DNA of 64,000 nucleotides from Candidatus Zhuqueibacterota bacterium (GCA_016214895.1 JACRMR010000013.1:2971-66970); one strand, 5' to 3'. Counted from the stretch's first letter, positions 31,671 through 49,278 are shown. Made by a program: numbers and translations. Notes: generated by a model not told the origin, from the sequence alone.

Positions 31671-31687
31671 ATTCCGACTGAATTCCC

Positions 31688-32260
31688 ATGAGACATCAAG
31701 ATAGAGGCCGCAGCCTCAGCCGCTCCCCCGCGCATCGTAAGGCGCTGCTCTGCAATCTGGCGCAGGAGCTGTTCCAGCATAAGCGGATTCATACCACGCT
31801 GACCAAGGCCAAAGAGTTGCGCCCATTTGCCGAGCGCTTGGTGACGCATGCGAAAAAGGCCGATCTGGCCGCTCGCCGCCGCGTCGCTATGTACCTCACG
31901 CGCAAGGCCGTGATCAAGAGCCTGTTCGATGAAATTGCACTGACATTCGCCGATCGTAATGGCGGCTACACGCGGATCATCAAACTTGGCAATCGACATG
32001 GCGACAACGCCCCGACGGCGATCATTGAACTGGTCGGGTTTGAGGGAGTCTTAGCCGCAAAGTCAACCGCTAGCGAATCCGACGCCGCGAAGGGCGCAAA
32101 GAAGACCGCTGCGAAGGCCAAGACAGGCAAGGCCAGGCAAGGAGCCGGAGATGCCAAGGCGGCGAAAGCCGTGAAGGGCGCCAAGGGCGGGGCCGCTCAC
32201 ACGCGTCGCGCGACAAAGGCTCCAGCCAAGAGTGGCAAGGCCGGCGGCAGGGGCGAATAG
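31688..32260 (+). CDS. rplQ: 50S ribosomal protein L17 with ~70-aa Ala/Lys/Gly-rich C-terminal extension
   Basis: L17 core [20 protein letters not shown]..., then the tail [19 protein letters not shown]...[10 protein letters not shown]. Confidence 0.93.
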
Positions 32261-32292
32261 AATCCGCGTCTGTATCTGACTGTTATTACAAG

Positions 32293-32322
32293 GGCCATGT
32301 CGTGCGACATGGCCTTTTTGTT
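32293..32322 (+). terminator. rho-independent terminator closing the alpha operon
   Basis: ggccatgtcg-tg-cgacatggcc (10-bp perfect stem) followed by tttttgtt. Confidence 0.85.
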
Positions 32323-32465
32323 GCGCCGCGGAATTGATTTTCCCTGACGAAGTGGGTATATTGAGATTGGGGGAAAGTGGGGGCTCGCCACCATCCGTGC
32401 ATTCAATGATAATACCTCTCCATCGTAGCGATTGCGGGGAATGCCCGAAGAATCGGATCCGATCA

Positions 32466-34117: not shown

Positions 34118-34906
34118 ATGACCATGTCATACGAAAATCTGATTCTGCAAATCGACGGCGCGGTCGCGACCGTGACCGTGAATCGACCGAAAACGCTGAA
34201 CGCGCTCAATATTGCGACCGTGCGCGAACTGCATGACTGCTTTCAATCACTGGGCGACAACGACGCTGTCGGTGCCATCATTATGACCGGGGCCGGTGAG
34301 AAATCGTTCGTATCCGGCGCTGATATTCAGGAAATCCGTGAACTTGATGTGATTTCCGGTAAGGAGTTTGCTGATCGTGGCAACAAGCTATACTCCCGGA
34401 TTGAGAAATTCCAAATCCCTGTAATTGCTGCTGTTAACGGTTATGCGCTCGGTGGAGGCTGTGAATTAGCGATGGCCTGTCATTTGCGCGTCGCTGCGGA
34501 GAACGCCAAGTTCGGACAACCGGAGATCAACTTGGGGATTATTCCGGGTTACGGCGGCACTCAGCGTCTCCCGCGGTTGATTGGCCGGGGGAAGGCTCTT
34601 GAACTGCTCTTGACCGGCCGCGTCATCCCCGCGTCTGAGGCCTTGAACATTGGCCTCGTGAATTCGGTCGTCCCGCAGGCAGACTTGATGACCGTCGTAC
34701 GCAAGCTGGCGGAGGAGCTCGCGGCGAAGCCACGACGCGCGGCGGCAGCGATCTTGAACGCCGTCGAGAATGGACTGCAGTTGGGACTGGACATGGGGTT
34801 GCGCGTTGAGGAAAGCTGGTTCGCGTACTGCTGTGGGACCGAAGACAAGAATGAAGGTACCGCAGCATTCCTGGAGAAACGCAAAGCCGTATTCACGGGC
34901 AGGTGA
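34118..34906 (+). CDS. enoyl-CoA hydratase/isomerase (crotonase) family protein
   Basis: Crotonase-fold signatures (FVSGADIQE..., LGGGCELAMACHLRVAA, GIIPGYGGTQRL). The ATG immediately follows the hutU stop. Confidence 0.85.
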   Translation: MTMSYENLILQIDGAVATVTVNRPKTLNALNIATVRELHDCFQSLGDNDAVGAIIMTGAGEKSFVSGADIQEIRELDVISGKEFADRGNKLYSRIEKFQIPVIAAVNGYALGGGCELAMACHLRVAAENAKFGQPEINLGIIPGYGGTQRLPRLIGRGKALELLLTGRVIPASEALNIGLVNSVVPQADLMTVVRKLAEELAAKPRRAAAAILNAVENGLQLGLDMGLRVEESWFAYCCGTEDKNEGTAAFLEKRKAVFTGR

Positions 34907-34912
34907 GCAGCC

Positions 34913-36172
34913 GTGCCCGACTTATTCGTACATAATATCGGCCTGCTGGCAACACCGCTCATGGCCGATCGTCAACGGACTGAGCGGTTCGTGCTGGAGC
35001 GGCGGAATGCCGCGATTCTCGTGCGCGAGGGGAGAATAGTCGAGATCGGCCCGGAGCGGGAGCTGGAGTCGCGCATGCCGGCGGACTGTCCGCGATTCAA
35101 CGCTGACGGATGCCTGGCCACACCCGGATTGATCGACTGCCACACCCACCCCGTGTTCACGGGCAATCGCGCCGACGAGTTCCACATGCGCAATGCGGGA
35201 CGGTCGTATCAGGAAATCGCCGTAGCCGGCGGCGGAATTCAGGCAACCGCGCGAAAAGTGCGCGCGGCTGCGGTGGACCAGATTGTGAAAGAATCGCTGC
35301 CGCGTTTCGATCGGTCGCTCGCCGCGGGCGTAACGACCATCGAAGCAAAATCCGGCTACGGACTGGACTGGGACGGCGAGGCGAAGCTGCTGCGCGCGCT
35401 CGAACTCATCAGTCTGCAGACTCCGCAGCGCATGCACAAGACGTTTCTGATTCATGCGGTTCCGGAAGCGATGGAGGGACAACGCGAGCGCTTTCTTGAT
35501 GAGGTTGCTGCCGAGATGATTCCGCGCGTGGCCGAGCTGAAGCTCGCTTCGGCGGCCGATGTCTTCTGCGAGCAGGGCGCATTCTCCGTCGATGAATCGC
35601 GCAGGATGCTGCGCGCCGCACTGGACCATGGACTTCAAGTTGCGGTGCACGCCAACCAATTCGGACACTCGGGCGGCGCGCTGCTGGCCGCGGAGCTCGG
35701 AGCCAGAAGTGCGGACCACTTGGAGTACCTGAACGACCAGGAAATCACGGCACTGGCGAAGGCCAACGTCTGCGCGGTCATGTTGCCCGCGAGTGTGTTC
35801 TTTCTGGGAACGCTGCCCTACCCGCCGGCGCGAAAGTTGATTGAGCAGGGTGCGCGGGTTGCGATTGCCACGGACATGAATCCAGGCTCGGCCATGACCG
35901 AATCGATGCCGTTCTGCATGACGGCCGCCGCGATCTATGCGAAAATGAACCCGGCGGAGTTGTTGTGGGCGGTCACCCTCGATGCGGCGGCGGCACTGCG
36001 CGCCGACAGCGACGTGGGGTCGCTGGAGGCCGGCAAGGCGGCGGACATCTGCCTCTGGCGGGCACCGGACCTGAATTCACTGTCCTATCATCTCGGCGAT
36101 TTCCGCGCATTCACCGTTATTATCGGCGGTGAACTGGCGTGGGAGGATCGCGATGCGACGGCAAGATATTAG
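34913..36172 (+). CDS. hutI: imidazolonepropionase
   Basis: Amidohydrolase with HutI homology (LIDCHTHPVFTGNRADEF, VHANQFGHSGG). Confidence 0.9.
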   Translation: MPDLFVHNIGLLATPLMADRQRTERFVLERRNAAILVREGRIVEIGPERELESRMPADCPRFNADGCLATPGLIDCHTHPVFTGNRADEFHMRNAGRSYQEIAVAGGGIQATARKVRAAAVDQIVKESLPRFDRSLAAGVTTIEAKSGYGLDWDGEAKLLRALELISLQTPQRMHKTFLIHAVPEAMEGQRERFLDEVAAEMIPRVAELKLASAADVFCEQGAFSVDESRRMLRAALDHGLQVAVHANQFGHSGGALLAAELGARSADHLEYLNDQEITALAKANVCAVMLPASVFFLGTLPYPPARKLIEQGARVAIATDMNPGSAMTESMPFCMTAAAIYAKMNPAELLWAVTLDAAAALRADSDVGSLEAGKAADICLWRAPDLNSLSYHLGDFRAFTVIIGGELAWEDRDATARY

Positions 36173-36989
36173 TGTCGGAACGTCGGGGTGGAAATTCGAC
36201 GATTGGGCCGGGACGTTTTATCCGCTGCGGGTCCCCCGGTCGAAGTGGCTCGAATTCTATGCCGCCCGGTTTCCCGTCGGCGAGATCAACAGCACGTACT
36301 ATCGCATCGCGGGACGCGCGACTTACGCGGGCATCGCGGGCAAGACGCCGGCGGGGTTTCGGCTCTTCGCGAAAGTGCATGGTGATGTGACGCACTCCCG
36401 AAGCGAGCCCGCGGAATCGATGCGCGCATTGCTGGGCGGACTCGCACCGCTCACGGAGCGCGGGAAATTGCTCGGATTGCTGGCGCAGTTTCCCGCTGCA
36501 TTCCAGCGATCAGATTCCAACATCGACTACTTGCTGCGCGTGCGCGACTTGTGCGCGAGTCGGTCACTGTACGTGGAGTTCAGACATCGCAGTTGGGATT
36601 GCGACGGCGTTCGAGCCACGCTGCGTGACGAGGGCGTGAGCTGGGTCAGCCCCGACGAGCCGCAATTGGAAAGCCTGATGCCTCCCGCATTGCATGTGAC
36701 GGGGGACTATGCGTACGTGCGGTTGCACGGTCGGAATGCGCGGGCATGGAACGACCGTACGGCGGGCGACCGGTATGATTACAACTACAGCGTTGACGAA
36801 TTGGTATCGGTTGGGCAGAAGTTGCTCGGCCTGCCGGACTCTGTCAAGCGGGCATTTGTCCTGTTTAACAATTGTTATCATGGTCAGGCGGCAACGAACG
36901 CGATTTGGTTGCAGCGATGGTTAGGCGACACGAACCACGAGGACGATTCGGCGAGCGAGAATGGACTCCATCTATTCACTGATTCATAG
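36153..36989 (+). CDS. DUF72 (YecE-like) family protein
   Basis: DUF72-like sequence (FYPLRVPRSKWLEFYAARFPVGEINSTYY, YVRLHGRN). ATG at 36153 after a gggagga RBS, overlapping the hutI 3' end by 20 nt. Confidence 0.7.
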   Translation: MRRQDISVGTSGWKFDDWAGTFYPLRVPRSKWLEFYAARFPVGEINSTYYRIAGRATYAGIAGKTPAGFRLFAKVHGDVTHSRSEPAESMRALLGGLAPLTERGKLLGLLAQFPAAFQRSDSNIDYLLRVRDLCASRSLYVEFRHRSWDCDGVRATLRDEGVSWVSPDEPQLESLMPPALHVTGDYAYVRLHGRNARAWNDRTAGDRYDYNYSVDELVSVGQKLLGLPDSVKRAFVLFNNCYHGQAATNAIWLQRWLGDTNHEDDSASENGLHLFTDS

Positions 36990-38382
36990 CTCGCAACATC
37001 GCGAGGCCTGGCGGCGGTTTCGATTGCCGACGGAGGATTGGCAGATTCTGAACAGCCACCTCCGTTCGCGATCAGCGAATCCGACGCTGCCACGGCTGCC
37101 CTATCCGTTGGAAGGGTACGTCAGCGCCGCGCCGGGTCCGCACGAATTCGCTTGCGTCGCTGAACCCGCGATCATGTCTCCCGGACCGTTTCGCGAAGCG
37201 GCGTTGCAACATTCGATTGCACTCACGACGCAACGCGATGCGGTGGACTCCTGCCGGGCGTGGTTTGGCTTGAGTGTCGAGTCGGCGCCGATGGACGCCG
37301 CGGACAACGCCTGGGCGCAACTCGCGCTGATCGACGCGGCCGAACGGACGGCGCTGACCGAGCTGGAAGCGAGGGTGATGCGTGCGGTCAGACTCGCCGA
37401 TGTGATGGACCTCGAAGGCGAGCCGCTGTTCCTATCGCTGAGCAAAATGGTTCAGCATCTATTCGCCCCGACCTATCTGGAGATTCAGCCGGACCTCTCG
37501 TCCGATTTCTGGTCGGAGCGCGACGGGGAGTGGGTCTGGCATGAGCCGAAAGATCTGCCGCAGGAGGCGGCAACCGAGCTCGTGCCACGACACAAATTGG
37601 CGCTCTATCGCCGCAATCGGATCTCGCTCATCGATGAGTGTGCGACCGCGGCGGAGTTTACGCGAGGAAAAGAGCTGCACGACCGGGGATACGTGTTCGC
37701 CGTGTTGGTGCCGCTGGTGCGCAACGACCGCCGCCTCGGTGTGCTCAAGCTGCTGTATGCCTCGCCGCTTACCATTTTACCGGTCGAACTCGATGCGCTG
37801 GAACTGTTCCGCGCCGAATTTTCAACCGTCTTCGACTGCTGCAGCAAGTTCTCGCGCACACAGCGACTCGCCACGATCGACGGGTTGACGCAGTTGTTTA
37901 ATCATCGCTTTTTGCGGGAACAACTGCGCACGGAATTCCAGCGCGCGAAGCGCTACAAGAAGATGATGACGTTCGTCATGATTGATATCGACGACTTCAA
38001 GACCTACAACGATACTTATGGCCATCTGGCCGGAGACCGGGTGTTGGCCGAGGTGGCGGCGACGATCCGCTCGTCCGTGCGCGACATTGACTTTGTGGCC
38101 CGCTACGGCGGCGAGGAGTTCGCGCTGATTCTGCCCGAGATCACTGCGGAGAACGGATTGATTGTGGCCGACAAAATTCGCAAGGCGATCGAAGCCCGTT
38201 CGCTGGTGACTGAGGAAGGCGAGTCGATGGGTGCAATCACGGTGTCGTGCGGAGTCACCGACAACCGCGATGCGGCGGCTCCGGAAGATCTCATCTCCGG
38301 CGCCGATCGCGCGCTCTACTGGGTGAAGCGACACGGAAGAAACCTGGTCAAGTTAGCAAATGTCGAATCGCAAGCGATCTGA
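36961..38382 (+). CDS. GGDEF-domain diguanylate cyclase with ~300-aa N-terminal (GAF-like?) sensor region
   Basis: C-terminal GGDEF domain with an intact active site (RYGGEEFALIL) and conserved FVMIDIDDFKTYND. Start uncertain. Confidence 0.85.
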   Translation: MDSIYSLIHSSQHREAWRRFRLPTEDWQILNSHLRSRSANPTLPRLPYPLEGYVSAAPGPHEFACVAEPAIMSPGPFREAALQHSIALTTQRDAVDSCRAWFGLSVESAPMDAADNAWAQLALIDAAERTALTELEARVMRAVRLADVMDLEGEPLFLSLSKMVQHLFAPTYLEIQPDLSSDFWSERDGEWVWHEPKDLPQEAATELVPRHKLALYRRNRISLIDECATAAEFTRGKELHDRGYVFAVLVPLVRNDRRLGVLKLLYASPLTILPVELDALELFRAEFSTVFDCCSKFSRTQRLATIDGLTQLFNHRFLREQLRTEFQRAKRYKKMMTFVMIDIDDFKTYNDTYGHLAGDRVLAEVAATIRSSVRDIDFVARYGGEEFALILPEITAENGLIVADKIRKAIEARSLVTEEGESMGAITVSCGVTDNRDAAAPEDLISGADRALYWVKRHGRNLVKLANVESQAI

Positions 38383-39868
38383 GTTTCCGCGAGTCCTGTT
38401 TGTTACGTCGGAGGTCACGCCGTTCAGCAAAACCGGCGGCCTGGCCGATATCAGCGGCGCGCTGCCGAAGGCGCTGAGTCGATTGGGCTGCGACGTGCGG
38501 GTGTTGTCCCCCTTGTACGGCTGCGTGGACGGGGAGCGACACGCACTGGCGGTATCGGCAAACGGCGCTCAACCTTCTCTGACTATTAACGGCCGGGCGC
38601 TGCACGCCGAATTTGCACGCGCGCCCCGCCGTGACTCTGAACCGGATTTCTGCTTCCTGCGCTGTGACGCGCTGTACGACCGGCCGGGGATTTACGTCGA
38701 TCCCTTCAGTAATCAGGACTACGTGGACAACGACTACCGGTTTATCGCACTCGCCAAGTGTGCATTCGACCTGTGTCGGAGCGATCACTGGACGCCGGAT
38801 GTCCTGCAGTGCAATGACTGGCAGGCCGGTCTGGTTCCGCTCTACCTGTCGCAGCGGCGGCGGCGCGGAGAATTCGCGGAGAGTCGTGCGGTGATGACGG
38901 TTCATAACATGGCCTATCACGGTTGGTTCAAGGCGGATACTGTCGCTCGCATCGGCGACGCGGAAGCGTTGTATTTTCCGGGCGGACCGATCGAATTCTA
39001 CGGGATGGTCAATTTCCTGAAAGCCGGGCTCGAATTTGCCGACGGGCTGAGCACTGTCAGTCCCACTTACGCGCACGAGATCCAGAGCAGCTATGATTTC
39101 GGCTTCGGACTGGAAACCGTATTGCGGGGGTCGCCGCGACCGCTGCAAGGAATTCTCAACGGGATCGACACCGAGGTCTGGAATCCGGAGACTGATCCGC
39201 GCATCGCCGCCAACTTTGGCATCGGTACGCTGCCCTGGAAAGTGGAGAACAAGCGCGCATTGTGCGCCAAGGCCGGGTTTGAATTCAACGCCGGCGTCCC
39301 GGTATTCGCGGTGATTTCACGGATTGTGGGCCAGAAGGGTTTCGAGATTCTCGCGCCGCTCATCACGGAAATTCTGAGCTTGCCGGCGCAGTTCGTGATC
39401 CTCGGCAGCGGCGACCCGTACTACGAGCACATGTTCCACGAACTGGCGCGCGTGTATCCCGACCGATTCGCGGTGAAGCTGGCCTACGACGAAGATCTGG
39501 CGCACTTGATCGAGGCCGGTTCGGACATGTTCCTCATGCCGTCCAAATTCGAACCGTGCGGACTGAATCAAATGATGAGCATGCGTTATGGCACGATTCC
39601 GATTGTGCGGGTCACCGGGGGACTTGCCGATACCGTGATCGACGCCGACACGGATTTGTTGCACGGAACCGGTTTCCGTTTCTATGACTATACGAGCGGC
39701 GAGCTGATGCACGCGGTCGAACGCGCGGTTTCCGCCTATCAAGATGCCGACCGCTGGCGGAGGATCCAGCGTAACGCGATGAGTCAGGATTTCTCGTGGG
39801 ATCGGTCGGCAAGGCAGTATCTTCAACTGTATCAGGAATGCCTCTCTCAACCGCCGCGCGTGGCCTGA
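38360..39868 (+). CDS. glgA: glycogen synthase (GT5, ADP-glucose type)
   Basis: N-terminal SEVTPFSKTGGLADISGALPKAL and GT-B C-terminal domain. Overlaps the GGDEF gene 3' end by 23 nt. Confidence 0.9.
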   Translation: MSNRKRSEFPRVLFVTSEVTPFSKTGGLADISGALPKALSRLGCDVRVLSPLYGCVDGERHALAVSANGAQPSLTINGRALHAEFARAPRRDSEPDFCFLRCDALYDRPGIYVDPFSNQDYVDNDYRFIALAKCAFDLCRSDHWTPDVLQCNDWQAGLVPLYLSQRRRRGEFAESRAVMTVHNMAYHGWFKADTVARIGDAEALYFPGGPIEFYGMVNFLKAGLEFADGLSTVSPTYAHEIQSSYDFGFGLETVLRGSPRPLQGILNGIDTEVWNPETDPRIAANFGIGTLPWKVENKRALCAKAGFEFNAGVPVFAVISRIVGQKGFEILAPLITEILSLPAQFVILGSGDPYYEHMFHELARVYPDRFAVKLAYDEDLAHLIEAGSDMFLMPSKFEPCGLNQMMSMRYGTIPIVRVTGGLADTVIDADTDLLHGTGFRFYDYTSGELMHAVERAVSAYQDADRWRRIQRNAMSQDFSWDRSARQYLQLYQECLSQPPRVA

Positions 39869-40728
39869 GGGTCGCGCTCGGCCTGCTGGCGCTGCTGGGG
39901 AGCTGCGTAAGTTCCGACGCGCGAGACTGGAAGGTCATCCTGCCGAGTGAGTCGGTGACGCTCCGGGATCCGCGAGCGTTGTCAATCGGTCCGGACGATT
40001 TGCTCTATGTCGCCGATGCCGGCAATCAGCGTGTCGTCGCCGTAGATACGAGCGGGACGCTGATCGCGGAAGCCGGTGGGTTCGGGAATGGCAACGGGCA
40101 GTTCCAAAGTCCGGAGGACGTCGCGGCGGAGTGGGGTACCAGTGTCTGGGTATTGGACTATGGAAATCGCCGCATTCAGCGATTCTCCCGCTCGCTGAGC
40201 TGGCAGGCAACGTACGAAGTCCTGATCGATGACACCCAGGACCGACGCAGCCCCGCGGCGATTGCACTGGCGCCCGACGGCGACCTTATCGTCTATGACC
40301 GCGACGGTCAGACTTTGCTGCGCTACGATCCGGGGTTCTTTCCACGGGCCAGCTTCGACGGCGCTCGCGGTTATGTTGGCGAAGTTGCCTCGATGGCGTT
40401 TGTTCGCGGACACGGCCTGTGCTGGATCGAGCGCGGCGGCCATACGCTGTATCGTTGCGATGCCATGCTGAATCCTCTGCCGTCAATTGAACTGCCGCCC
40501 GAATACGGTGAGACCACACTGGCCGCCGCGGATAGTTCACTACTGACCGGCGCCCGCGGGTTTGTGATCCGGTGGCAAAGCAGCGCGCGACCCGCTGATA
40601 CGCTCTTTGATGCGCGGACAGTGATCGGCAAGGAAATTCGCACAATCACCAGCTTGGCGATGGCGTCGAGCGGGACCTTGTACCTGCTGGACCGGACCAC
40701 GGGAAGAGTTGTTCGCGTATCGCCCTGA
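39838..40728 (+). CDS. NHL-repeat beta-propeller lipoprotein
   Basis: Signal peptide with lipobox LLGSC (MPLSTAARGLRVALGLLALLGSC). NHL-type repeats (LYVADAGNQRVVAVD, VWVLDYGNRRIQRF, LYLLDRTTGRVVRV). The ATG at 39838 lies inside the glgA 3' end. Confidence 0.75.
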   Translation: MPLSTAARGLRVALGLLALLGSCVSSDARDWKVILPSESVTLRDPRALSIGPDDLLYVADAGNQRVVAVDTSGTLIAEAGGFGNGNGQFQSPEDVAAEWGTSVWVLDYGNRRIQRFSRSLSWQATYEVLIDDTQDRRSPAAIALAPDGDLIVYDRDGQTLLRYDPGFFPRASFDGARGYVGEVASMAFVRGHGLCWIERGGHTLYRCDAMLNPLPSIELPPEYGETTLAAADSSLLTGARGFVIRWQSSARPADTLFDARTVIGKEIRTITSLAMASSGTLYLLDRTTGRVVRVSP

Positions 40729-43700
40729 TTCCTCCGGAGTGAGACACCCGGCATCAAGCCTTGGCATCGGCTGTGCGATGGCGCTGCTGTTGATTGCACT
40801 GAACGCGCCGACCGCCTGCGCGATTCCGTCGCGAATCGGACAGGCGAGATTCGTGTCCACGGGTGCTACCGACACGTTGCTCACGCTCAGCGTGCCATGG
40901 ATTGAGATCGATTCCATTCAAGTCACGGCCCGCGGCCAGACGCTTTCCGAGTTTGAACGCTGGCGGCTGATTGAACCCGGCAACCGCATCTGGCTCTTCC
41001 GCCCCTTACCCCAAGGCGACACCCTTTCCGTTCGCTTCATCTATCGTTCGATCCCGCTCTATCGTCTCTACAGCCGACATGTCCTCAGCGAACTCGCCGT
41101 ATCTCATTCCCGCATCGGAGTAGCGGATAGCCTGCGGATCCTTCCCGGTTCGCGTTCGGGTCTTTCCGAAACGTCGGGATGGAGTCGCCTGAACAAGTCC
41201 GGTTCGCTGATCCGCAGTGTGCAGGTAGGCAGCGGCCAGGACCTCGCACTCGAGTCAGCCCTCAATCTCACGGTGCAGGGACGAGTCGGAAAAAACATCG
41301 ATGTCGTCGCGGCGCTTACAGACCAGTCCACACCAATCCAGCCGGATGGCACCACCGAAGCCCTGAACGAACTGGAGAAAGTCTTCGTCACCGTCAAGAG
41401 CCCGCGCATGAGCGCGACGGTAGGCGACTTCAACCTGGATCTGACCGGCGGCGACTACGACGACTATCATCGCAAGCTCACGGGGCTTAGCGCCGCGTAT
41501 CATGACTCGGTGGCAGTGGTTGCCGTAAGCGCGGCGACAAGCAAAGGACAGTTCTTTTCCAATTCAATCGCGGGTCAGGAAGCCAATCAAGGTCCGTACC
41601 CTTTGCGAGACAAGAACGGCAGCAGCGGAATTCTGGTCCTGGCCGGAACTGAGCATGTCTGGCTCGACGGCGAACCGATGCGACGCGGCGAAGGCAACGA
41701 TTATGTCATCGATTACAGCAGCGGCGAGATCAAGTTCACGGCCAAGCGAGTCATTACGTCGGCAAGCCGGATGGTAATCGACTTTGAGTACTCGAACGAG
41801 GACTTTGAACGCTCGTTCGTCAATCACCGTACAGGGGTTAGTGTCAAGCGCGGAGTGCTCACCACGGCGATCACGCTGATCAACGAAAGCGACAGCCGCG
41901 ATCGACCGGTCGGAACGTCGTTTACCGACGCGGACCGCGACGCACTACGGCTGGCCGGTGATCGCGCGGATGCGGCGGTCGTGTTCGCCGCGGATTCGCT
42001 GGGACCCGGTCGCGGTGACTATGTGCGCATCGACACCGCGGCCAACGCGGAATCCTATTCCATTTTTCGCTACTCAGAGCGCGATACCGCCGGCGCGCTG
42101 ACCGGACAATGGCAAGTCTATTTCGACGAGTTCGCCGTCGGCGCGGGCGACTATGAGGCCACGGCGGACTCGCGAGGGCTGACCTACTTCTACTGGGTCG
42201 GACCCGGCAACGGTCGATACCGGCCGTATCGGCGACTGCCGTTGCCGCGTCGATACGACTTCGGCGACCTGCGCGTGTCCACCCGACCCCTGGCGGGCCT
42301 CGACCTGTCGTTCGAGGGCGCGTTAAGCCGCAATGATCTGAATACGTTTTCAAGCAGCGACGATGAAGACAACGGCGGCACGGCGTTCTCGGTGAGCGGG
42401 GAGTATTCCCGGCAACGTCCGTCCATTCTGGGAGTTCGTCCGCGCAGCCTGTCCGTGCTCACCCGCATGCGCGGACGGAACGAGGACTTCGTCGAGATCA
42501 ACCGCGCACTGGAAACGGAGTTCGAACGCGAGTGGGACGCCAATCGCAACCAGGGAACACAGGAGTTGATCCGCGAGGCGGAACTCCGGTTGATGCCGAT
42601 CCATGCGGTGAGTTTCGCCGCCAGCTATGGTGATCTGCTTCGCCCGGATGTGCAGACTTCAGCGCGCCGGAAATTGAGCGCCGGCTGGACGATTGCCAAC
42701 GGGTGGCGGACATCGGCGAGTCACCTCGACATCCGCGCCGACGACTCGACGAACTCGCGGCAAAGCGATTGGATTCGGCAACGCGCTGCGATGGACGGGG
42801 CGATATCGAGATTCGCGCCGCGCGTTTCCGTCGATCGCGAGCGCAAGCGCGACGAACGTCGCAGCGGTTTGAGCGGTTTTCGGTTTGTTGACTACGCAAT
42901 CGGGTCGGCAGTGGATCTGGGATATCGGCTGAACGCCGACGCGCAGTTCTCGCGTCGGAACGACGAGGAGCTGACACCGGCGGACCGGTTTGAGAAGTCG
43001 TCCCGGGCCGATGATATGAGCGGCCTGCTGTCATGGCAGCCGCCGGAACTTGGCAGCGGCTCGCTGCGTTATACTCACCGCGAGAAGAGTTTTCCGGGTC
43101 TGGATTCCGCCGACATCGTGACAGACGTGGGACGCCTCGAAACGGTATTCGCGCCGCGGCGCAGGGTCGTGGAAGGAAACCTGATCTACGAGGCGGCGAA
43201 AACTCAGTCAGCGGATCAGATTCTGGTGGCGATTCAGGTTCCCGCCGGAACAGGAAGTTACCGGAAAGAGGGCGACAAATACGTTCCCGATGATCAAGGT
43301 GACTACATCCTCGTTCCGCGAAACACCGGTTCCTATCAGCCGGCCACGGATCTAAACCTTTCGGCGCAAGCTTCAATTCGCGCCGATGAGCTGGGACCCG
43401 CAGCGGCCGCCTGGATCCGGGCGCTGTCGAGTGAGACTGAACTGACGATCGAGGAACGCACACGGCTGCCATTGTCGGCGCGGATGGTGCTCTTGGATCC
43501 AACGCGCTTTCGCGGAGACTCCACGCTCTATGGCACGTTCTCGCTGCGCGAGGACTTACACGTCCTGCGCTTGAGCCGCAAGCGTTCGTTTCGCCTGCGC
43601 TACCGGCATGCGGAGTCGCTGCAGAATCAGTATTTGAACGGCGGTCAACGCCGGTCGCTCCGGGAAGCGGCCCTGCGCACGCGGATGCTGTACACGGAGA

Positions 43701-44167
43701 TCCTGCGCGGTGAGACCGAAATCGGTACTTCGACCGAGACGATCGGCTACGACAATGGAGTCCTGCCGGACCGGGACATCGCCCGGTTCGAACTGACTCA
43801 GAACAACTCGCTCAGCCTGACGCGGTTGTGGGAACTGGGATTGGATTTCGGCGCGCAGGAGATCCGCGACGAACAAACATCGACGCAGGCCAGTTTGCGG
43901 GACGTCAAGCCGCGCGCGACCCTGACCATGGCCGGTCGCGGCAGACTGGATGCCGAGTTCGCCTGGTCTCACGCCACTGCCAATCGCGAGAGCATTCCGT
44001 TTGAGCTCGCGCGCGGCGCCAACCGCGGCGAAAATTTTCGCTGGTCGGTCAGAGGCACGTACGCCTTCGGCCAGAACTTTTCCGCTTCGATCTCCTACAC
44101 CGGAAGGCGTGACGCGGGGGAGAGAGTAATCCATACGGGGCGTGTGGAGGCGCGGGCGTCGCTATGA
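40709..44167 (+). CDS. uncharacterised large secreted/outer-membrane protein (1152 aa), beta-rich, no recognisable family
   Basis: N-terminal signal peptide MALLLIALNAPTACA|IPS (probable true start 40778). No Cys after the signal and no internal hydrophobic helices. Amphipathic alternating patterns with Y/R/D/G-rich turns throughout. The C-terminus RVEARASL has alternating hydrophobics. The stop overlaps the start of the downstream Omp85 gene (ATGA). Confidence 0.6.
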   Translation: MFAYRPDSSGVRHPASSLGIGCAMALLLIALNAPTACAIPSRIGQARFVSTGATDTLLTLSVPWIEIDSIQVTARGQTLSEFERWRLIEPGNRIWLFRPLPQGDTLSVRFIYRSIPLYRLYSRHVLSELAVSHSRIGVADSLRILPGSRSGLSETSGWSRLNKSGSLIRSVQVGSGQDLALESALNLTVQGRVGKNIDVVAALTDQSTPIQPDGTTEALNELEKVFVTVKSPRMSATVGDFNLDLTGGDYDDYHRKLTGLSAAYHDSVAVVAVSAATSKGQFFSNSIAGQEANQGPYPLRDKNGSSGILVLAGTEHVWLDGEPMRRGEGNDYVIDYSSGEIKFTAKRVITSASRMVIDFEYSNEDFERSFVNHRTGVSVKRGVLTTAITLINESDSRDRPVGTSFTDADRDALRLAGDRADAAVVFAADSLGPGRGDYVRIDTAANAESYSIFRYSERDTAGALTGQWQVYFDEFAVGAGDYEATADSRGLTYFYWVGPGNGRYRPYRRLPLPRRYDFGDLRVSTRPLAGLDLSFEGALSRNDLNTFSSSDDEDNGGTAFSVSGEYSRQRPSILGVRPRSLSVLTRMRGRNEDFVEINRALETEFEREWDANRNQGTQELIREAELRLMPIHAVSFAASYGDLLRPDVQTSARRKLSAGWTIANGWRTSASHLDIRADDSTNSRQSDWIRQRAAMDGAISRFAPRVSVDRERKRDERRSGLSGFRFVDYAIGSAVDLGYRLNADAQFSRRNDEELTPADRFEKSSRADDMSGLLSWQPPELGSGSLRYTHREKSFPGLDSADIVTDVGRLETVFAPRRRVVEGNLIYEAAKTQSADQILVAIQVPAGTGSYRKEGDKYVPDDQGDYILVPRNTGSYQPATDLNLSAQASIRADELGPAAAAWIRALSSETELTIEERTRLPLSARMVLLDPTRFRGDSTLYGTFSLREDLHVLRLSRKRSFRLRYRHAESLQNQYLNGGQRRSLREAALRTRMLYTEILRGETEIGTSTETIGYDNGVLPDRDIARFELTQNNSLSLTRLWELGLDFGAQEIRDEQTSTQASLRDVKPRATLTMAGRGRLDAEFAWSHATANRESIPFELARGANRGENFRWSVRGTYAFGQNFSASISYTGRRDAGERVIHTGRVEARASL

Positions 44168-45903
44168 GAATGAGCATAATTCTGCTTTGCCTCCTGCGAT
44201 GTGTCGTCGATTCAAGCGCCGAGACGGCAGCCGTCGAGCGAATTCGGTGCTCCGGAAACCGGGTCTTTTCCGATGCCGAGTTGGTGCGAATGCTCGGCGT
44301 CGAGCGCGGACAGCAGCTTGACGCCGTTGCGATGGAAGCCGCGGGCAGCCGGCTGGTCGATTCGCTGATTGCCCGCGACCTGCTGTTTGCGCGAACCGAC
44401 AGCATCCGCGGCGAGCGCGGCAAGCGCGGCACGGTGTTAACGGTCTTTGTTACGGAAGGGTCCACGGCGGTTGTCGATGAACTGCATTGGGCGGGCGATT
44501 CCGGACGAGTAGCTGACGCGAATGCCGACCTGTTGCTGACGCGTGGCGCGTCGTTTCAATGGAGTCGTCTGCGTGCCGACTTGAATCGGCTCCTCGACCA
44601 GTTCACCTCCGCGGGCTATCCGTATGCGCGTGTCGAATTGGAACGCGTGGACGCGGACTCCACCGATCACACCGTTGATCTCTATCTGAAGCTCACCAGC
44701 GGACCGTTCACCGAGATCGAATTCGTCGAGTTCAGCGGATTGCGCGGGACCAGCGAGGCCTTCTTGAGGCGGTACCTGAGATTTCGGGTACCGGTTCCCT
44801 ACAGCGATGCCGCGGTCGCGCGGGGAAAGCGAAGACTGGCACGACTGGATTTTCTGCGGTCAGTCGGAGATCCGCGAATCGTCGTACGAGAGGATGGGAG
44901 CAGCGGTGTGCAGTTCCCGGTCGAAGAGGCACGCGCCACACGACTTGATGCCGTGGCCGGATATCTGCCCGGCGAGCAGGGTAAGAACGGGACGGTCAGC
45001 GGACTTGTCAACCTCGATTTCATCAATCTGCTCGGAAGCGGACGCAAGGGCCATGTGCACTGGGCGCGGCCCGATTCACGAACGCAGAGCGTCGAGATCG
45101 CCTATCGCGAACCGTGGGTGTTGAATTCGCCGCTCAGTCTGGCGGGCGATTTTTCGCAGCGGATCGATGATACGAGCTATGTCACGCGCAAGATGGGCGT
45201 GGTGGCGGACGCCGAGCTGGGATCGAATGTCGTCGTCACCGGAGCGGTTCGCTTCGAGGCTGTGTTGGTGGATTCGGCATCGGCGGTCCGTCTGGGGTTG
45301 GCGAACAGCAGTACCGTGGTGTTCGAAACCGGGCTGGCGATTGACACGCGCGATTTCCCGCCAAATCCACGGCGTGGATTCCGGTTCGCGACGACCGTGG
45401 GCAGCGGCACAAAGCGCCGCGAACGGCTGAATGACTCGTTGGATGCCGGCCGGTTCGGGGTGCGGCGCGTGAGTGCCGATGCCGAAGCCGTCGCCGAGCC
45501 GCTCCCCTACTGGGTAGCCAGTCTCGCCTTGCACGCGCGCGGGACGGAGAGTGATGAACCGGAAATCCCGGTTTCGGACATGTATCGACTGGGCGGAGCG
45601 CGAACCCTGCGCGGCTATCGCGAGGAGCAGTTTCAGGGTTCGCGGCTGGGCTGGGCGTCCGCCGAGTTGAGGTACTTGCTCGGCGAGGCATCGCGACTCT
45701 ATCTCTTCGCGGATGCCGGTGCGATCTACCGCGAAGTGCGGACGGCCAGCGGTCCAGCATCGTCGTCCCTGTTTCGGCCGGCGACCGGAGTCGGTCTGCG
45801 ACTCGAATCGACGCTGGGCACCTGGGGCTTCGATTACGGCGTCGGTCAGGACGACCGCGTGCTGAACGGCAAAGTACATTTTTCATTGTTCACAAGTTTC
45901 TGA
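44164..45903 (+). CDS. Omp85-family outer-membrane protein (POTRA + 16-strand barrel; TamA/TpsB-sized, 579 aa)
   Basis: Signal peptide MRMSIILLCLLRCVVDSSA|E. POTRA-like N-terminal region (IRCSGNRVFSDAELVRMLGV...). C-terminal bacterial surface antigen barrel ending in the beta-signal KVHFSLFTSF. Confidence 0.8.
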   Translation: MRMSIILLCLLRCVVDSSAETAAVERIRCSGNRVFSDAELVRMLGVERGQQLDAVAMEAAGSRLVDSLIARDLLFARTDSIRGERGKRGTVLTVFVTEGSTAVVDELHWAGDSGRVADANADLLLTRGASFQWSRLRADLNRLLDQFTSAGYPYARVELERVDADSTDHTVDLYLKLTSGPFTEIEFVEFSGLRGTSEAFLRRYLRFRVPVPYSDAAVARGKRRLARLDFLRSVGDPRIVVREDGSSGVQFPVEEARATRLDAVAGYLPGEQGKNGTVSGLVNLDFINLLGSGRKGHVHWARPDSRTQSVEIAYREPWVLNSPLSLAGDFSQRIDDTSYVTRKMGVVADAELGSNVVVTGAVRFEAVLVDSASAVRLGLANSSTVVFETGLAIDTRDFPPNPRRGFRFATTVGSGTKRRERLNDSLDAGRFGVRRVSADAEAVAEPLPYWVASLALHARGTESDEPEIPVSDMYRLGGARTLRGYREEQFQGSRLGWASAELRYLLGEASRLYLFADAGAIYREVRTASGPASSSLFRPATGVGLRLESTLGTWGFDYGVGQDDRVLNGKVHFSLFTSF

Positions 45904-45905
45904 GC

Positions 45906-47510
45906 GTGCGCCGCGGGGCGGATGCGCGCCACTCACTGTCACAACGTTTACCACTTCTTCCCTTGAAAAAAGAACTCATCATTAACTCCACGACAACCGA
46001 GTCGCGGCTCGCGCTGACGGAGGATGGCGTACTCGCCAACCTTTTTGTGGAGCGTCCGGAGCACGAACGCAACGTCGGCGACATTTACAAAGGCATCGTG
46101 CACCGCGTCATGCCCGGCATGCAGGCGGCGTTCATCGATATCGGCTGGGAAATCGACGGCTTTATTCACTTCTCGGACCTATTCCAATCCGCCGTCGATA
46201 TGGCGGAAGGCATGGAAATGGAAGATGTCTCGTTGCCCGAGAAGCGCCAGGGATTCCGGCGGGCCTACAAGCCCCGCGCCGAACTGAAGGCCGGACAGGA
46301 ATTGCTGGTGCAGATCATCAAGGAGCCGATCAGCAAGAAGGGACCCCGGTTGACGTCGCAAGTCTCGCTGCCCGGACGATTCCTGGTACTGGTGCCCGGG
46401 GATAATCTGGTCGGCGTCTCAAAACGAATCCCCGACTTCAAGGAGCGCAAGCGCCTCAAGCAGATCATCAAATCCCTGCAACCCGAAGGTTTCGGCCTGA
46501 TCTGTCGCACGGTTGGCGAAGGCAAGAGCGATGACGAAGTCAAGCGCGATCTGCGTACGCTGATGCGACTCTGGCAGATGATCCAGAAACGGATCGAGTC
46601 AACGCCCGCGCCGGTTCGCGTCCACAAGGAAGCACCGATCACATCCAGCATCATCCGCGACCTGTTTTCACCCGAGACGACGCGCGTGATCGTCGATAGC
46701 CGCAAGCTCTACCGCGAGATTAGAGCCTACGTGCGTTCCGTGGCGCCGCAACAGCTTGATTCGATCCAGTATTTCGACGGCGAAGAGCCGATCTTCGACG
46801 CGTTCAAGATTGAGTCCGAGATTGATAAGAGCCTGTCGCGGCGTGTGTGGTTCGGCGGCGGCAGTTATTTGATCATCGAGCAAACGGAAGCCGTGGTCAC
46901 GATCGACGTGAACTCCGGACGCTTCGTCGGCAAGGAACACCACGACGAAAACAATCTGCGCGTCAATCTGAGAGCTGTGCAGGAAATCGCGCGGCAGCTC
47001 AGACTGCGCGATCTGGGCGGAATCATCATCATCGATTTCATCGACATGATCGATGAACGAAATCGCAAGAAGCTCTTCGAGGCCATGCGCCAGGCGTTGA
47101 AAGATGATCGGGCGAAGTGGGACCTGGCGCCGATCAGTCAGTTCGGGATCATGGAGATGACGAGGCAGCGGACCAAGGACTCGCTCCTGCATACCTTCAA
47201 CGAGACTTGCCCGACCTGCGGAGGCTCCGGGATGGTCGTTGTCAAGGAGTCTGTCGTCACCCAGTTGCAATCCTGGATTCGGAGGTTCCGGGCACGGTCC
47301 GGTGAAATGGGACTAACTGTGAAGGCACATCCTGAAATCGTTGATTTTGTGACAAAAGGAGACAAATCTCATCTTCGTCAGATCATGTGGGATTCGATGC
47401 TCTACATCAAGCTGGAGCCGGAGCCGAGCCTAAGGTTAGATGAATTCAAGTGTTACAGCTGGAAACAGAAGCGAGAAGTCACCGATGACTTCCGCTCCGT
47501 GCCCGCTTGA
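45906..47510 (+). CDS. rng: ribonuclease E/G family endoribonuclease (RNase G-like)
   Basis: S1 domain (GDIYKGIVHRVMPGMQAAFIDIG), catalytic core (IIIDFIDM) and Zn-link CPTCGGSG. The true start is probably the TTG at 45963 (LKKELIINST). Confidence 0.88.
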   Translation: MRRGADARHSLSQRLPLLPLKKELIINSTTTESRLALTEDGVLANLFVERPEHERNVGDIYKGIVHRVMPGMQAAFIDIGWEIDGFIHFSDLFQSAVDMAEGMEMEDVSLPEKRQGFRRAYKPRAELKAGQELLVQIIKEPISKKGPRLTSQVSLPGRFLVLVPGDNLVGVSKRIPDFKERKRLKQIIKSLQPEGFGLICRTVGEGKSDDEVKRDLRTLMRLWQMIQKRIESTPAPVRVHKEAPITSSIIRDLFSPETTRVIVDSRKLYREIRAYVRSVAPQQLDSIQYFDGEEPIFDAFKIESEIDKSLSRRVWFGGGSYLIIEQTEAVVTIDVNSGRFVGKEHHDENNLRVNLRAVQEIARQLRLRDLGGIIIIDFIDMIDERNRKKLFEAMRQALKDDRAKWDLAPISQFGIMEMTRQRTKDSLLHTFNETCPTCGGSGMVVVKESVVTQLQSWIRRFRARSGEMGLTVKAHPEIVDFVTKGDKSHLRQIMWDSMLYIKLEPEPSLRLDEFKCYSWKQKREVTDDFRSVPA

Positions 47511-47567
47511 CAATTTCCTCAGAAAGCCGTATTTTAGAGGGCTTTACGAGAAAGGCCAATTTCCACC

Positions 47568-47882
47568 ATGTACGCAGTATTTAATGTGACCCCCGGCCGT
47601 CAGGTCAAAGCCGCCCCCGGCAGTACCGTGAAGGTCGATTATTTCGAAGAAGCCAAAGCAGGCCAGAAGCTGGTCTTCGATGAGGTGCTGCTGGTTTCTG
47701 ACGGAGCCGTGCCAAAGATCGGAGCTCCCTACGTCAAGGCCAAGGTGCATGCCACCGTCGTCGGACACGGGCGCAATCCCAAAGTTGTCGTCTTCAAGAA
47801 GAAGAAGCGAATCGACTATCACAAGCAGCGCGGCCACAAGCAGCACTTCACGACGCTGCACATCGACTCGATCGAGGCCTGA
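47568..47882 (+). CDS. rplU: 50S ribosomal protein L21
   Basis: [24 protein letters not shown]: L21. Confidence 0.95.
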
Positions 47883-47944
47883 GTCTTGTCAGCGGTCAAT
47901 CCGCCGCTGCTCCAGTTTCAAAGTATTCCAACCGCTTCCCTCCC

Positions 47945-48208
47945 ATGGCTCACAAAAAAGGTCAAGGCTCTTCGCGCAACGGCCGCGACAGTCAGCCCAA
48001 GATGCTCGGCGTCAAGCGTTTTGCCGGTCAGCATGTCAGTGCCGGAGAGATTCTCGTGCGCCAGCGCGGGACCAAAATCAAGCCGGGCGAAAACGTCGGT
48101 TGCGGGCGCGATCATACGCTGTTTGCCCTGATCGAGGGCAAAGTGAAGTTCGTGACTTCCACAAATGCACTGCGGAAGTCCGTCCATATCGAGCCCGTGG
48201 AGGCGTAG
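47945..48208 (+). CDS. rpmA: 50S ribosomal protein L27
   Basis: [26 protein letters not shown]: L27. Confidence 0.96.
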
Positions 48209-48267
48209 CGGACTCGAATTGATTTAGCGGCCGATTGTCACTCGCCGCGCTTCGTTTCAAGCATTTT

Positions 48268-48301
48268 GCGCGGCCTGATCTTCAGCGCCGCGCTTTCTTT
48301 T
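48268..48301 (+). terminator. rho-independent terminator after rpmA
   Basis: Stem gcgcggc/gccgcgc followed by tttcttttg. Confidence 0.65.
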
Positions 48302-48354
48302 GTTGACAAAACCATTCCGATTTCAGCTATGTCCCTCCCCAAACACCTCCTCTC

Positions 48355-49278
48355 ATGAAAATCACCGTCATCGGCGCCGGCAACGTCGGAGCCACCTGCG
48401 CGTACATTCTCGCCGCTAAGAACATTTGCAGAGAAGTCGTCGTCATCGATATTCTTGACGGCATTCCGCAGGGCAAGGGTCTGGATATGTACCAGGCCGC
48501 ACCCGTTGGAGCTTACGACACCGTTGTGCGCGGCACTAACGCGTACGCCGACACCGCCAACTCCGATATTATCGTCATGACCGCCGGTAAGCCGCGTCAG
48601 CCCGGAATGTCGCGGGATGACTTGCTGGCCGCGAATGTGGTGATCATCAAGGACGCGATTACGCAGGCGGCCAAGGTCTCGCCCAACGCGTTTATCATCA
48701 TGGTCTCGAATCCGCTGGATGCGATGTGCTTCGCCGCTTTGAAGCTGTCCGGCTTCCCGCACAAAAAAGTGTTTGGAATGGCCGGGATTCTCGACACGGC
48801 TCGTTACCGGACGTTCATTGCGATGGAACTGGAAGTGTCCGTACGGGACGTCGCGGCGGTTGTGCTCGGAGGTCATGGCGACACGATGGTTCCACTGCCG
48901 CGGCTGACTACCGTCGGCGGAGTGCCGCTGACGGCGCTGCTGCCCAAGGAGCGCATTGATGCGATCGTGCAGCGCACTCGTGACGGCGGTGCTGAAATCG
49001 TGAAGTACTTGAAGACCGGCTCGGCGTTTTACGCACCGGCGGCGGCCGCGGTCGAAATGGTCGAGAGCATCGTGCACGATCAGAAGCGCGTGCTGCCCTG
49101 CGCTGCATGGCTGCAGGGCGAATACGGCTATCGCGACATCTACATGGGTGTCCCTGTGATCGTCGGCAAGCAGGGCGTCGAGAAGATCCTTGAGATCCCC
49201 TTCAACGACGATGAAAAGGCCATGTTCGCCAAGTCGGCCGATGCCGTGACCTCGCTCTTGCAAGCGACGAAAGTCTAA
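48355..49278 (+). CDS. mdh: malate dehydrogenase (LDH-like, NAD-dependent)
   Basis: Rossmann [12 protein letters not shown] with MDH/LDH catalytic loop and homology. Confidence 0.92.

Follow-up and report, generated by a model that had tools for sequence, protein, structure and literature searches.

The locus

Three adjacent open reading frames run in the same direction in the window, by which I mean the whole 64-kb stretch of DNA that was analysed, and they lie where the earlier note had placed them (Table 1). The first encodes an NHL-repeat beta-propeller protein (NHL), the second a protein of 1152 amino acids, and the third a short member of the Omp85 family. The second will be called BIG, a label coined in this analysis. 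All three products begin with signal-like sequences, and the claim that each carries an export signal holds.

Table 1. Features of the NHL-BIG-Omp85 locus, in coordinates of the window (AF2, AlphaFold2)
Feature	Position	Strand	Basis
NHL-repeat beta-propeller protein, 296 aa from ATG 39838	39838..40728	+	ORF, Pfam NHL
BIG, 1152 aa, unnamed family of predicted giant outer-membrane beta-barrels	40709..44167	+	ORF, AF2 model
BIG small all-beta N-terminal domain, aa 40-113	40826..41047	+	DSSP, pLDDT of AF2 model
BIG low-confidence linker, aa 118-158	41060-41182	+	DSSP, pLDDT of AF2 model
BIG barrel region, aa 160-1151, ~38 predicted amphipathic beta-strands	41186..44161	+	DSSP, hydrophobicity alternation
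BIG motif AALTDQSTPIQPEG(T/N)TQ, aa 205-225, most conserved of the family	41321..41383	+	invariant/near-invariant columns
BIG conserved small insert domain, aa 289-361, G(Q)EGNQGPY ... NDYVIDY..G.I.F	41573..41791	+	family-model similarity
BIG second insert between barrel strands, aa 401-514, mixed helix/short-strand	41909..42250	+	DSSP, AF2 model
ATGA, overlap of BIG stop and Omp85 start	44164..44167	+	sequence
Short Omp85, 579 aa	44164..45903	+	Pfam Omp85 + POTRA, AF2 model
Omp85 POTRA1, aa 23-97	44230-44454	+	AF2 model
Omp85 POTRA2, aa 103-178	44470-44697	+	AF2 model
Omp85 POTRA3, aa 187-255	44722-44928	+	AF2 model
Omp85 16-strand barrel, aa 259-578	44938-45897	+	AF2 model
Omp85 loop-6 RGY motif, aa 483-485	45610-45618	+	conserved ...LRGYREEQF

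Two overlaps had been claimed at the junctions. The 4-nt overlap between BIG and Omp85 stands, and it recurs unchanged in one relative (L001). The 20-nt overlap between NHL and BIG is another matter, for it appears only if BIG begins at TTG 40709, and the choice of start is uncertain. GTG 40739 would leave a gap of 10 nt and ATG 40778 a gap of 49 nt, and a database protein of 1129 aa (P0001), 100% identical to BIG, begins at the last of these. Overlapping or abutting junctions are found also in relatives; the gaps between BIG and Omp85 in L006 and L007 are 141 and 264 nt. From 32432 to 47510, genes (judged by the longest ORFs) abut or overlap throughout, including such unrelated ones as hut, DUF72, GGDEF, and glgA. 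Since tight packing is common across the array, overlap by itself is weak evidence here for a functional link.

The NHL protein matches Pfam PF01436 (E=6.5e-16), and a longer ORF is possible from GTG 39796. It had been described as a lipoprotein. Its signal peptide does end in LLGSC, the cysteine codon lying at 39904-39906, but the lipobox cysteine is not kept in its homologues, most of which have SPase-I-type signals ending in ...AQ. Because lipidation is not conserved, the likeness that had been drawn to the lipoprotein BamB is a weak one. As a description of the locus, then, the earlier note is confirmed in part.

A family of predicted giant barrels

BIG had been taken for an orphan, which it is not. 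It has 354 matches in a word index, a profile search (E<=1e-3) gives 4,782 cluster representatives, and a scan of contigs from one genome per species gives at least 579 relatives confirmed by tblastn. These come from KSB1, LCP-89, Calditrichota, Ignavibacteria, and Rhodothermales, and the architecture of the protein is constant across them. Outside Bacteroidia, the FCB group has conserved the family by vertical descent. Pfam gives zero matches to BIG, a search of the PDB with the family profile finds nothing at E<=1, and, apart from the insert domain considered below, no member of the family has a match in Pfam, NCBIfam, or the PDB.

What sort of protein might it be? A transmembrane beta-barrel is expected to carry a signal peptide, to be built of amphipathic antiparallel strands in even number, to have an aromatic beta-signal at the C-terminus, and to be closed. 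BIG has a cleavable signal peptide and no inner-membrane anchor. Its AlphaFold2 model (pLDDT 83.6, pTM 0.70) consists of a small N-terminal domain and then, from aa 160 to 1151, some 39 long strands. Averaged over 334 members of the family, 38 of the strands alternate between hydrophobic and polar residues, and one face is strongly polar. The last residues of the family consensus are ...RAEVRAxF, those of the BIG of the window ARASL. A coevolution test for pairing of the first strand with the last gave no signal. The roughly 38 amphipathic strands can be read as a giant barrel, whose closure and strand number are predicted, and BIG as the representative of a hitherto unnamed family of beta-barrels of very large size in the outer membrane. 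A protein predicted to be a giant barrel itself, with a terminus resembling a beta-signal, does not sit well with the earlier suggestion that it is secreted cargo or a giant surface protein.

The most conserved columns of the family, those of the motif AALTDQSTPIQPEG(T/N)TQ, fall mostly within a low-confidence loop between strands (pLDDT <50 at aa 206-222). The small insert domain is the sole part of BIG with similarity to family models, those of SprA and of a phage tail protein. The BIG of the window matches the SprA model TIGR04189 at E=0.0016 over aa 307-361, and 21 of 39 members match it (best E=3.3e-8), but so do 21 of 39 match the phage tail model, TIGR02217. Run alone against the PDB, the segment brought up no SprA or phage-tail chain, its single match being at the level of chance (E=1.4).

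It might be supposed from this that BIG is a distant relative of SprA at half the size and the trio a second SprA-like export pore, with NHL as its plug or carrier. The three best Foldseek matches in the PDB are indeed SprA chains (8gl6_A, 8gl8_A, and 6h3i_A, with E about 1e-9), and the family of BIG is confined to lineages of the FCB group, where T9SS cargo with Por_Secre_tail domains is carried as well. However, the TM-scores are only 0.23-0.26, ordinary TonB-dependent receptors do nearly as well, the similarity in sequence comes down to about 55 residues of the insert domain, for which as many members match a phage tail model, and the family profile reaches no SprA chain. Nor is any T9SS gene a conserved neighbour of BIG across the 84 non-redundant loci compared. 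I consider a SprA relative quite improbable. The fold comparison that the earlier note had proposed thus returns only generic, barrel-type matches, with the likeness to SprA limited to the small insert.

LptD is among those generic matches, and BIG resembles it in several ways: it is conserved and apparently a housekeeping protein, it is predicted to form a large barrel preceded by a beta domain in the periplasm, and its partner is co-expressed. Could it be an LptD-type insertase of lipopolysaccharide (LPS), with NHL in the role of LptE? There is very little chance of it: BIG matches no LptD/OstA model in Pfam or NCBIfam, the family profile finds no LptD in the PDB at E<=1, the N-terminal domain is no long jelly-roll but some 70 aa ahead of a disordered linker, and the NHL partner is absent from many lineages.

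The short Omp85 protein

The Omp85 protein is short and of the size of TamA, as had been claimed, and the POTRA count and barrel prediction that had been called for give three POTRA domains and 16 strands (AF2, pLDDT 89.5). Its signal is of the SPase-I type, ...VVDSSA followed by ETA, with no lipobox. Foldseek matches it to BamA (7e-30) and TamA (1.7e-27), and it aligns to POTRA3-5 and the barrel of BamA. No bamA is found among the annotated ORFs of the 64-kb window.

BamA has five POTRA domains and a 16-strand barrel; the protein has three, and it scores 112.4 bits against TIGR03303 (BamA), where the cutoff is 297. TamL is an Omp85 lipoprotein of Bacteroidota and Chlorobi with a conserved cysteine before POTRA1; the protein has no such lipobox and matches NF052279 (TamL) at E=0.047. 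The architecture of TamA, three POTRA domains with a barrel of 16 strands, is also that of the protein, but the score against NF047950 (TamA) is 25.7 bits, with a cutoff of 625.

A large exported protein translationally coupled to an Omp85 protein of TpsB or TamA size brings to mind two-partner secretion or a variant of TAM, in which Omp85 would transport or dock BIG. TpsB proteins, of the ShlB/FhaC family, carry a plug helix at the N-terminus and two POTRA domains; their TpsA partners begin with a TPS domain (NPNL/NPNG) and contain a beta-helix. There is a weak match to Pfam ShlB (E=0.0065, 16.4 bits), but it is below the cutoff of 22.7, three POTRA domains are one too many, and no TpsB is found among the best 50 fold matches. 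BIG for its part matches no TPS or haemagglutinin family in Pfam and is predicted to be a beta-meander barrel, all its fold matches being barrels. The earlier note was right that it is no TpsA. It was right as well that the pair is not tamA-tamB. TamB, usually encoded beside tamA, is anchored in the inner membrane, folds into an AsmA-like beta-taco, and carries DUF490 at its C-terminus; BIG begins instead with a cleavable signal peptide, matches neither DUF490 nor AsmA, and has only barrel-type fold matches, and there is no TamB-like gene in its neighbourhood in the window. Two-partner secretion or a TAM variant is thereby largely refuted, and I give it almost no weight.

Conservation of gene order

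The trio is a conserved neighbourhood, so that the refutation by its absence which the earlier note had allowed for does not apply; several deep lineages of the FCB group keep it, some of them with other flanking genes. With loci labelled Ignavibacteria or Bacteroidota left out, 52 loci are assessable, and in 48 of them the gene just upstream of BIG is an NHL homologue. NHL is a neighbour in 52 and Omp85 in 42 of all 84 non-redundant loci, and the next commonest neighbour in 15. NHL upstream and Omp85 downstream are found, respectively, in 8/8 and 8/8 loci of the window's clade, 2/2 and 2/2 of LCP-89, 7/8 and 8/9 of KSB1, and 20/22 and 18/19 of unlabelled loci; in each of the three named groups, 88% or more of the assessable loci keep the trio. 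Calditrichota mostly have NHL-BIG without Omp85. Neither partner is beside BIG in Ignavibacteria (0/16), in MAGs labelled Bacteroidota (0/8), or in Rhodothermales, and so neither is required in cis. The core of the system is thus BIG, then NHL-BIG, with Omp85 adjacent in some lineages only. Por_Secre_tail genes, encoding T9SS cargo, are present in L004 and L051.

There are orthologues of the short Omp85 that are unlinked to BIG and adjoin a gene for a GWxTD-domain protein, and for this reason Omp85 may be a general factor, not one dedicated to BIG. One could go further and regard BIG as a housekeeping outer-membrane protein with uninvolved neighbours, the gene order merely inherited and Omp85 a general TamA-like factor. 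The lone BIG of Ignavibacteria and Rhodothermales adjoins housekeeping genes (ogt, uvrD, nudix, murA, and L21/L27), overlaps are the rule in this region of the window, and in Flavobacterium johnsoniae a 'putative TamA' with an SPase-I-type signal, Fjoh_0402, is likewise an orphan, no TamB being encoded beside it (10.1101/2024.10.17.618404). But mere inheritance has to contend with a trio retained at 30-34% identity in BIG while its flanks are wholly replaced, with an NHL-BIG-Omp85 order on one strand that is invariant, and with the fact that every other family of neighbours is limited to 15 or fewer of the 84 loci. I think uninvolved neighbours unlikely, though they are the most serious of the alternatives.

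A proposed model

I propose instead that BIG is a wide, gated conduit in the outer membrane, with about 38 strands and a water-filled lumen, whose gate or functional site would be made up of the conserved loop (TDQSTPIQPEG) together with the small insert domain. NHL, encoded by the gene just before BIG and exported to the periplasm, would be its stoichiometric partner, docking at or inside the periplasmic mouth of BIG, much as LptE does in LptD and MtrA in MtrB. The Omp85 protein, with three POTRA domains and 16 strands, would be a paralogue of the BamA/TamA-type insertases that aids the folding and insertion of BIG. What the analysis shows is the genes, their export signals, the predicted folds, the breadth of the family, and the conserved synteny; that the three proteins associate physically, that Omp85 and BIG are insertase and client, that NHL sits where it is placed here, and that BIG is a channel are inferred.

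My tentative preference, a little short of an even chance, is for BIG as a new family of large-barrel channels, partnered in the periplasm by the propeller and probably assembled by the TamA-like Omp85. More doubtful, though a real possibility, is the stronger form, that BIG is a closed single-chain barrel of some 38-40 strands which, with periplasmic NHL and a dedicated Omp85, makes up an unrecognised core machine for transport or assembly in KSB1, LCP-89, Calditrichota, Ignavibacteria, and Rhodothermia. The earlier interpretation, a noncanonical outer-membrane module, finds partial support.

If the proposal is true, then BIG is a giant barrel, widespread and apparently housekeeping, whose sequence clusters number in the thousands across several phyla; it has had no name, domain model, or solved structure, and its lineages include the cultivable Rhodothermia and Ignavibacteria. 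The 36 strands of SprA have been called the largest known beta-barrel in a recent preprint (10.64898/2026.03.07.710327), and about 38 strands in some 1,150 residues would match or exceed it. A barrel of such size would be a hard test case for the folding of very large substrates by BAM/TAM-type machinery. Its conserved pairing with a TamA-like Omp85 lacking TamB offers a testable candidate for client and insertase, and may account for the orphan 'TamA' proteins reported in Bacteroidota.

Comparison with known systems

The best reading of the trio is that it is not TPS, TAM, BAM, LptDE, or SprA. SprA/Sov is what BIG is predicted to be, a giant single-chain barrel in which domains are inserted between strands, and like BIG it is found only in the FCB group (PDB 6H3I and 8GL6); it gives BIG its best Foldseek E-values, and a short motif of the insert domain is common to both. 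However, SprA has about 2,400 residues and BIG about 1,150, TM-scores are near 0.25, similarity in sequence across the barrel is absent, and BIG does not match TIGR04189, a model of about 2,300 positions with a cutoff of 200 bits, over its full length. The loops of BIG are short on both faces, while SprA has a large extracellular cap, and SprA is a T9SS translocon, whereas BIG has no T9SS neighbours.

The Omp85 of the window shares with the TamA of E. coli and P. aeruginosa and with Fjoh_0402 an SPase-I signal, three POTRA domains, 16 strands, and a length of about 580 aa. Compared by architecture and neighbourhood, it and Fjoh_0402 are alike also in having no adjoining TamB gene. It differs from TamA in its low model score and in its partner gene, which encodes a giant barrel and not TamB.

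LptD-LptE and MtrB-MtrA are instances of a large barrel encoded in one operon beside a smaller exported partner, and with MtrB and LptD both among the fold matches of BIG, they offer a possible model for how NHL might fit it. They have no sequence relationship to NHL-BIG. LptE is a lipoprotein and MtrA a cytochrome, neither of them a propeller, and only gene order suggests the association of NHL with BIG. BamA-BamB is likewise an Omp85 protein paired with a beta-propeller, but the Omp85 considered here has fewer POTRA domains and falls below the BamA cutoff, and the propeller is of the NHL type and usually unlipidated. Unlike the propeller of BamA-BamB, moreover, this one goes with BIG rather than with Omp85, as the NHL-BIG pairs of Calditrichota make plain.

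A family of predicted giant barrels

The 1152-residue protein encoded by the middle gene of the trio, here called BIG, was taken in the earlier note for an orphan, and for the cargo of the genes beside it. The first idea fails on numbers. A word-indexed search finds 354 homologues, every one annotated as 'hypothetical' and about 1,100-1,200 aa in length, while a profile built from 48 members finds 4,782 cluster representatives at E<=1e-3, with 2,539 of them at E<=1e-30. With each species represented by one genome, at least 579 relatives were confirmed among 600 matching stretches, from sources that include the window's own clade, LCP-89, KSB1/Zhuqueibacterota, Calditrichota and Ignavibacteria/Melioribacteraceae, and a walk from a divergent member reached a large Rhodothermales branch. 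BIG is not always single-copy, since one 514-kb contig from a Rhodothermaceae MAG (L093) carries two paralogues, P0385 and P0407 (KatS3mg044_1205 and _1264). In the records of relatives such as L008, L009, L013 and L014, the title 'uncultured Alphaproteobacteria bacterium' is given to the genomes closest to the window, while 'uncultured Cytophagia bacterium' is used for several that are KSB1-like. These labels look wrong, because gene content and BIG similarity point to KSB1/LCP-89-like FCB lineages.

The idea of a cargo fails on the predicted fold. An AlphaFold2 model of BIG made from a 48-sequence alignment (mean pLDDT 83.6, pTM 0.70) consists mostly of one long beta-meander. When hydrophobicity is averaged over 334 family members, 38 long strands show a moderately hydrophobic face alternating with a strongly polar one, as would be expected if a barrel in the membrane enclosed a water-filled lumen; the closure of this putative barrel and its exact strand number are predictions. 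The family consensus ends in ...RAEVRAxF, which resembles a beta-signal. Barrel closure was probed by coevolution, with mean-field DCA of 334 sequences in a reduced alphabet: adjacent hairpins have a median score of 0.106, the background mean being 0.033, but pairing of the first strand with the last scores -0.016, and gap artefacts dominate the top pairs. The largest barrel known, according to a 2026 preprint, is that of SprA, with 36 strands (10.64898/2026.03.07.710327). BIG represents a new family, broadly distributed, whose members are predicted to be giant barrels of the outer membrane; rather than being cargo it is itself predicted to be such a barrel.

Features of the three genes and their products
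Feature	Position	Strand	Basis
NHL-repeat protein ORF	39796/39838-40728	+	Pfam PF01436, E=6.5e-16
BIG ORF, 1152 aa	40709-44167	+	no Pfam family
BIG small beta domain	aa 40-113		AlphaFold2 model
BIG linker, low confidence	aa 118-158		AlphaFold2 model
BIG beta-meander, nearly unbroken except for two inserts	aa 160-1151		AlphaFold2 model
BIG first insert	aa 289-353		AlphaFold2 model
BIG conserved domain of the first insert	aa 289-361 (41573-41791)	+	
BIG second insert	aa 401-514		AlphaFold2 model
Short Omp85 ORF, 579 aa	44164-45903	+	Omp85 and POTRA domains
Omp85 POTRA domains	aa 23-97, 103-178, 187-255		AlphaFold2 model
Omp85 16-strand region	aa 259-578		AlphaFold2 model

Is BIG a distant relative of SprA?

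Precomputed Pfam domains are absent from the BIG members listed by the word-indexed search and by the walk from a divergent member, except for one PF13505 entry (P0386), and the family profile has zero matches at E<=1 among PDB sequences. With Pfam and NCBIfam, the BIG of the window gives no match save one to the SprA model (NCBIfam TIGR04189), which covers about 55 residues. This is the only family-model similarity that BIG has, and it might be read to mean that BIG is a distant SprA-like export pore. The match recurs in 21 of 39 members, with a best E of 3.3e-8. However, it lies within the first insert, and there the model of a phage/GTA distal tail protein (TIGR02217) is matched by the same number of members, 21 of 39, and that of a phage tail tube protein (NF052337) by 10 of 39, phage tail models being matched about as often as SprA. 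The insert searched alone against PDB gives no match beyond one at chance level. The similarity looks like that of a common small beta-sandwich module, not barrel homology, and I consider a SprA-like pore quite unlikely. Together with a loop motif, AALTDQSTPIQPEG..TQ (aa 205-225), the insert is the most conserved part of the family, and the two are candidates for the functional site of BIG.

A conserved gene neighborhood

The three co-directional genes are present as the earlier note described them, all with signal-like N-termini, and the ATGA at 44164-44167 contains both the stop codon of the second and the start codon of the third. The 20-nt overlap claimed for the first two exists only if BIG starts at TTG 40709, and disappears if it starts at GTG 40739 or ATG 40778, which are equally possible; P0001, the 100%-identical database protein, begins at the last of these. 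Overlap says little about function here, because every gene from 32432 to 47510 (taking longest ORFs) abuts or overlaps its neighbor: hutU, enoyl-CoA hydratase, hutI, DUF72, GGDEF, glgA, the trio and RNase G. A scan for promoters and terminators over 31500-48500 gave counts no higher than those in shuffled controls.

The stretch from 32432 to 39868 is a single tightly packed co-directional array running into the trio, in which hutU and hutI are interleaved with the enoyl-CoA hydratase, DUF72, GGDEF diguanylate cyclase and GT5 glycogen-synthase-like genes. Gene order from hut to trio is identical in three relatives (L001, L004, L005), and in L001 and L005 the overlap between glgA and the NHL start is 4 nt. 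Further along, on the minus strand, a 499-aa ORF (52054-53553) has a methyltransferase-domain match at aa 75-121 and, towards the C-terminus (aa 381-498), a RadC-like JAB domain; the fusion may be genuine, or the longest-ORF rule may have run two genes together.

In 84 non-redundant BIG loci the only widely recurring neighbors are the NHL gene (52) and the Omp85 gene (42), the next families reaching at most 15.

Partners of BIG by lineage, as fractions of assessable loci
Lineage	NHL upstream of BIG	Omp85 downstream of BIG
Own clade	8/8	8/8
LCP-89	2/2	2/2
KSB1/Zhuqueibacterota	7/8	8/9
Unlabelled MAGs	20/22	18/19
Calditrichota	11/12	2/8
Ignavibacteria/Melioribacteraceae	0/16	0/16
Bacteroidota-labelled MAGs	0/8	0/8

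BIG and an exported NHL propeller form a conserved gene pair, joined in several deep lineages by a third gene that encodes a TamA-like Omp85. A search for a docking region found no difference in BIG architecture between trio, pair and solo lineages beyond a few residues at most. Could the trio be nothing but gene order passed down by descent, its members unconnected in function? BIG lies amid housekeeping genes (ogt, uvrD, nudix, murA, L21/L27), with neither partner, in Ignavibacteria and Rhodothermales. On the other side, the trio is kept even where the flanking genes differ wholly. I regard synteny alone as rather unlikely.

Other neighbors recur more narrowly. The glgA and GGDEF genes were rejected as module members and treated as lineage synteny, because outside the window's clade and LCP-89 they are not adjacent (they adjoin in 14 and 11 of the 84 loci). 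BIG has RNase G (45906-47510 in the window), L21 and L27 close by not only in the window's clade but also in a Rhodothermales genome (relatives L001, L005 and L092), which suggests an old synteny with housekeeping genes. In 12 KSB1-type loci (for example L006 6518-6919 and L018 4186-4560) the NHL gene is directly preceded by one for a protein of about 130 aa, which has a single hydrophobic segment near its N-terminus, gives no Pfam match and could be a fourth, lineage-specific member.

The partners

The NHL protein of the window has a PROSITE-compatible lipobox, LLGSC, and the earlier note likened it to BamB. Most of its homologues have SPase-I signals and lack the lipobox Cys, so the partner is generally a soluble exported propeller and the likeness to a BamB-type lipoprotein is lost.

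The Omp85 protein is modelled (AlphaFold2, pLDDT 89.5) with three POTRA domains and 16 strands, it conserves the loop-6 RGY motif, and its sequence alignment covers POTRA3-5 and the barrel of BamA. An identical protein at NCBI bears the label 'candidate division KSB1 bacterium'. Foldseek matches it to BamA (7e-30) and TamA (1.7e-27). As BamA it was rejected (112 bits against a cutoff of 297 for the curated model), nor does it reach the cutoff of the curated TamA model (25.7 bits against 625), and it is not TamL because it lacks a lipobox. A variant of TPS or TAM is largely refuted and very improbable: TpsB does not occur in the top 50 Foldseek matches. The nearest described analogue is an orphan SPase-I 'putative TamA' of F. 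johnsoniae, Fjoh_0402, which has no TamB neighbor and is non-essential (10.1101/2024.10.17.618404).

Short Omp85 orthologues also occur apart from BIG, beside a GWxTD-domain gene. At L088 (4719-8797) and L090 (4754-7779) a GWxTD-domain protein (PF20094) is followed directly by the short Omp85, within a conserved context of DUF3108, Rce1-like, CdsA and MiaB genes; at L090 the two genes overlap. At L089, where a distant Omp85 has a large gene without annotation close to it, that gene proved to be no relative of BIG.

A working model

I propose, tentatively, that BIG would be a wide gated conduit, that the NHL propeller may pair with it on the periplasmic side, much as LptE does with LptD or MtrA with MtrB, and that the Omp85 would be an insertase paralogue aiding assembly of so large a barrel. 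As a whole this model falls a little short of probable. That BIG is itself an analogue of LptD I think hardly to be expected, the trio lacking at least one defining feature of LptDE.

The earlier interpretation survives in outline (a non-canonical, conserved module, neither TPS nor TAM) and is lost in its particulars (cargo, orphan, lipoprotein analogy). There is a reasonable chance that the trio is a new outer-membrane machine, of predicted strand number and putative complex formation. As with LptDE, membership in TPS, TAM, BAM or SprA systems was rejected, at least one defining feature being absent in each case; the components I rate as of known kinds, a beta-barrel outer-membrane protein and an Omp85.
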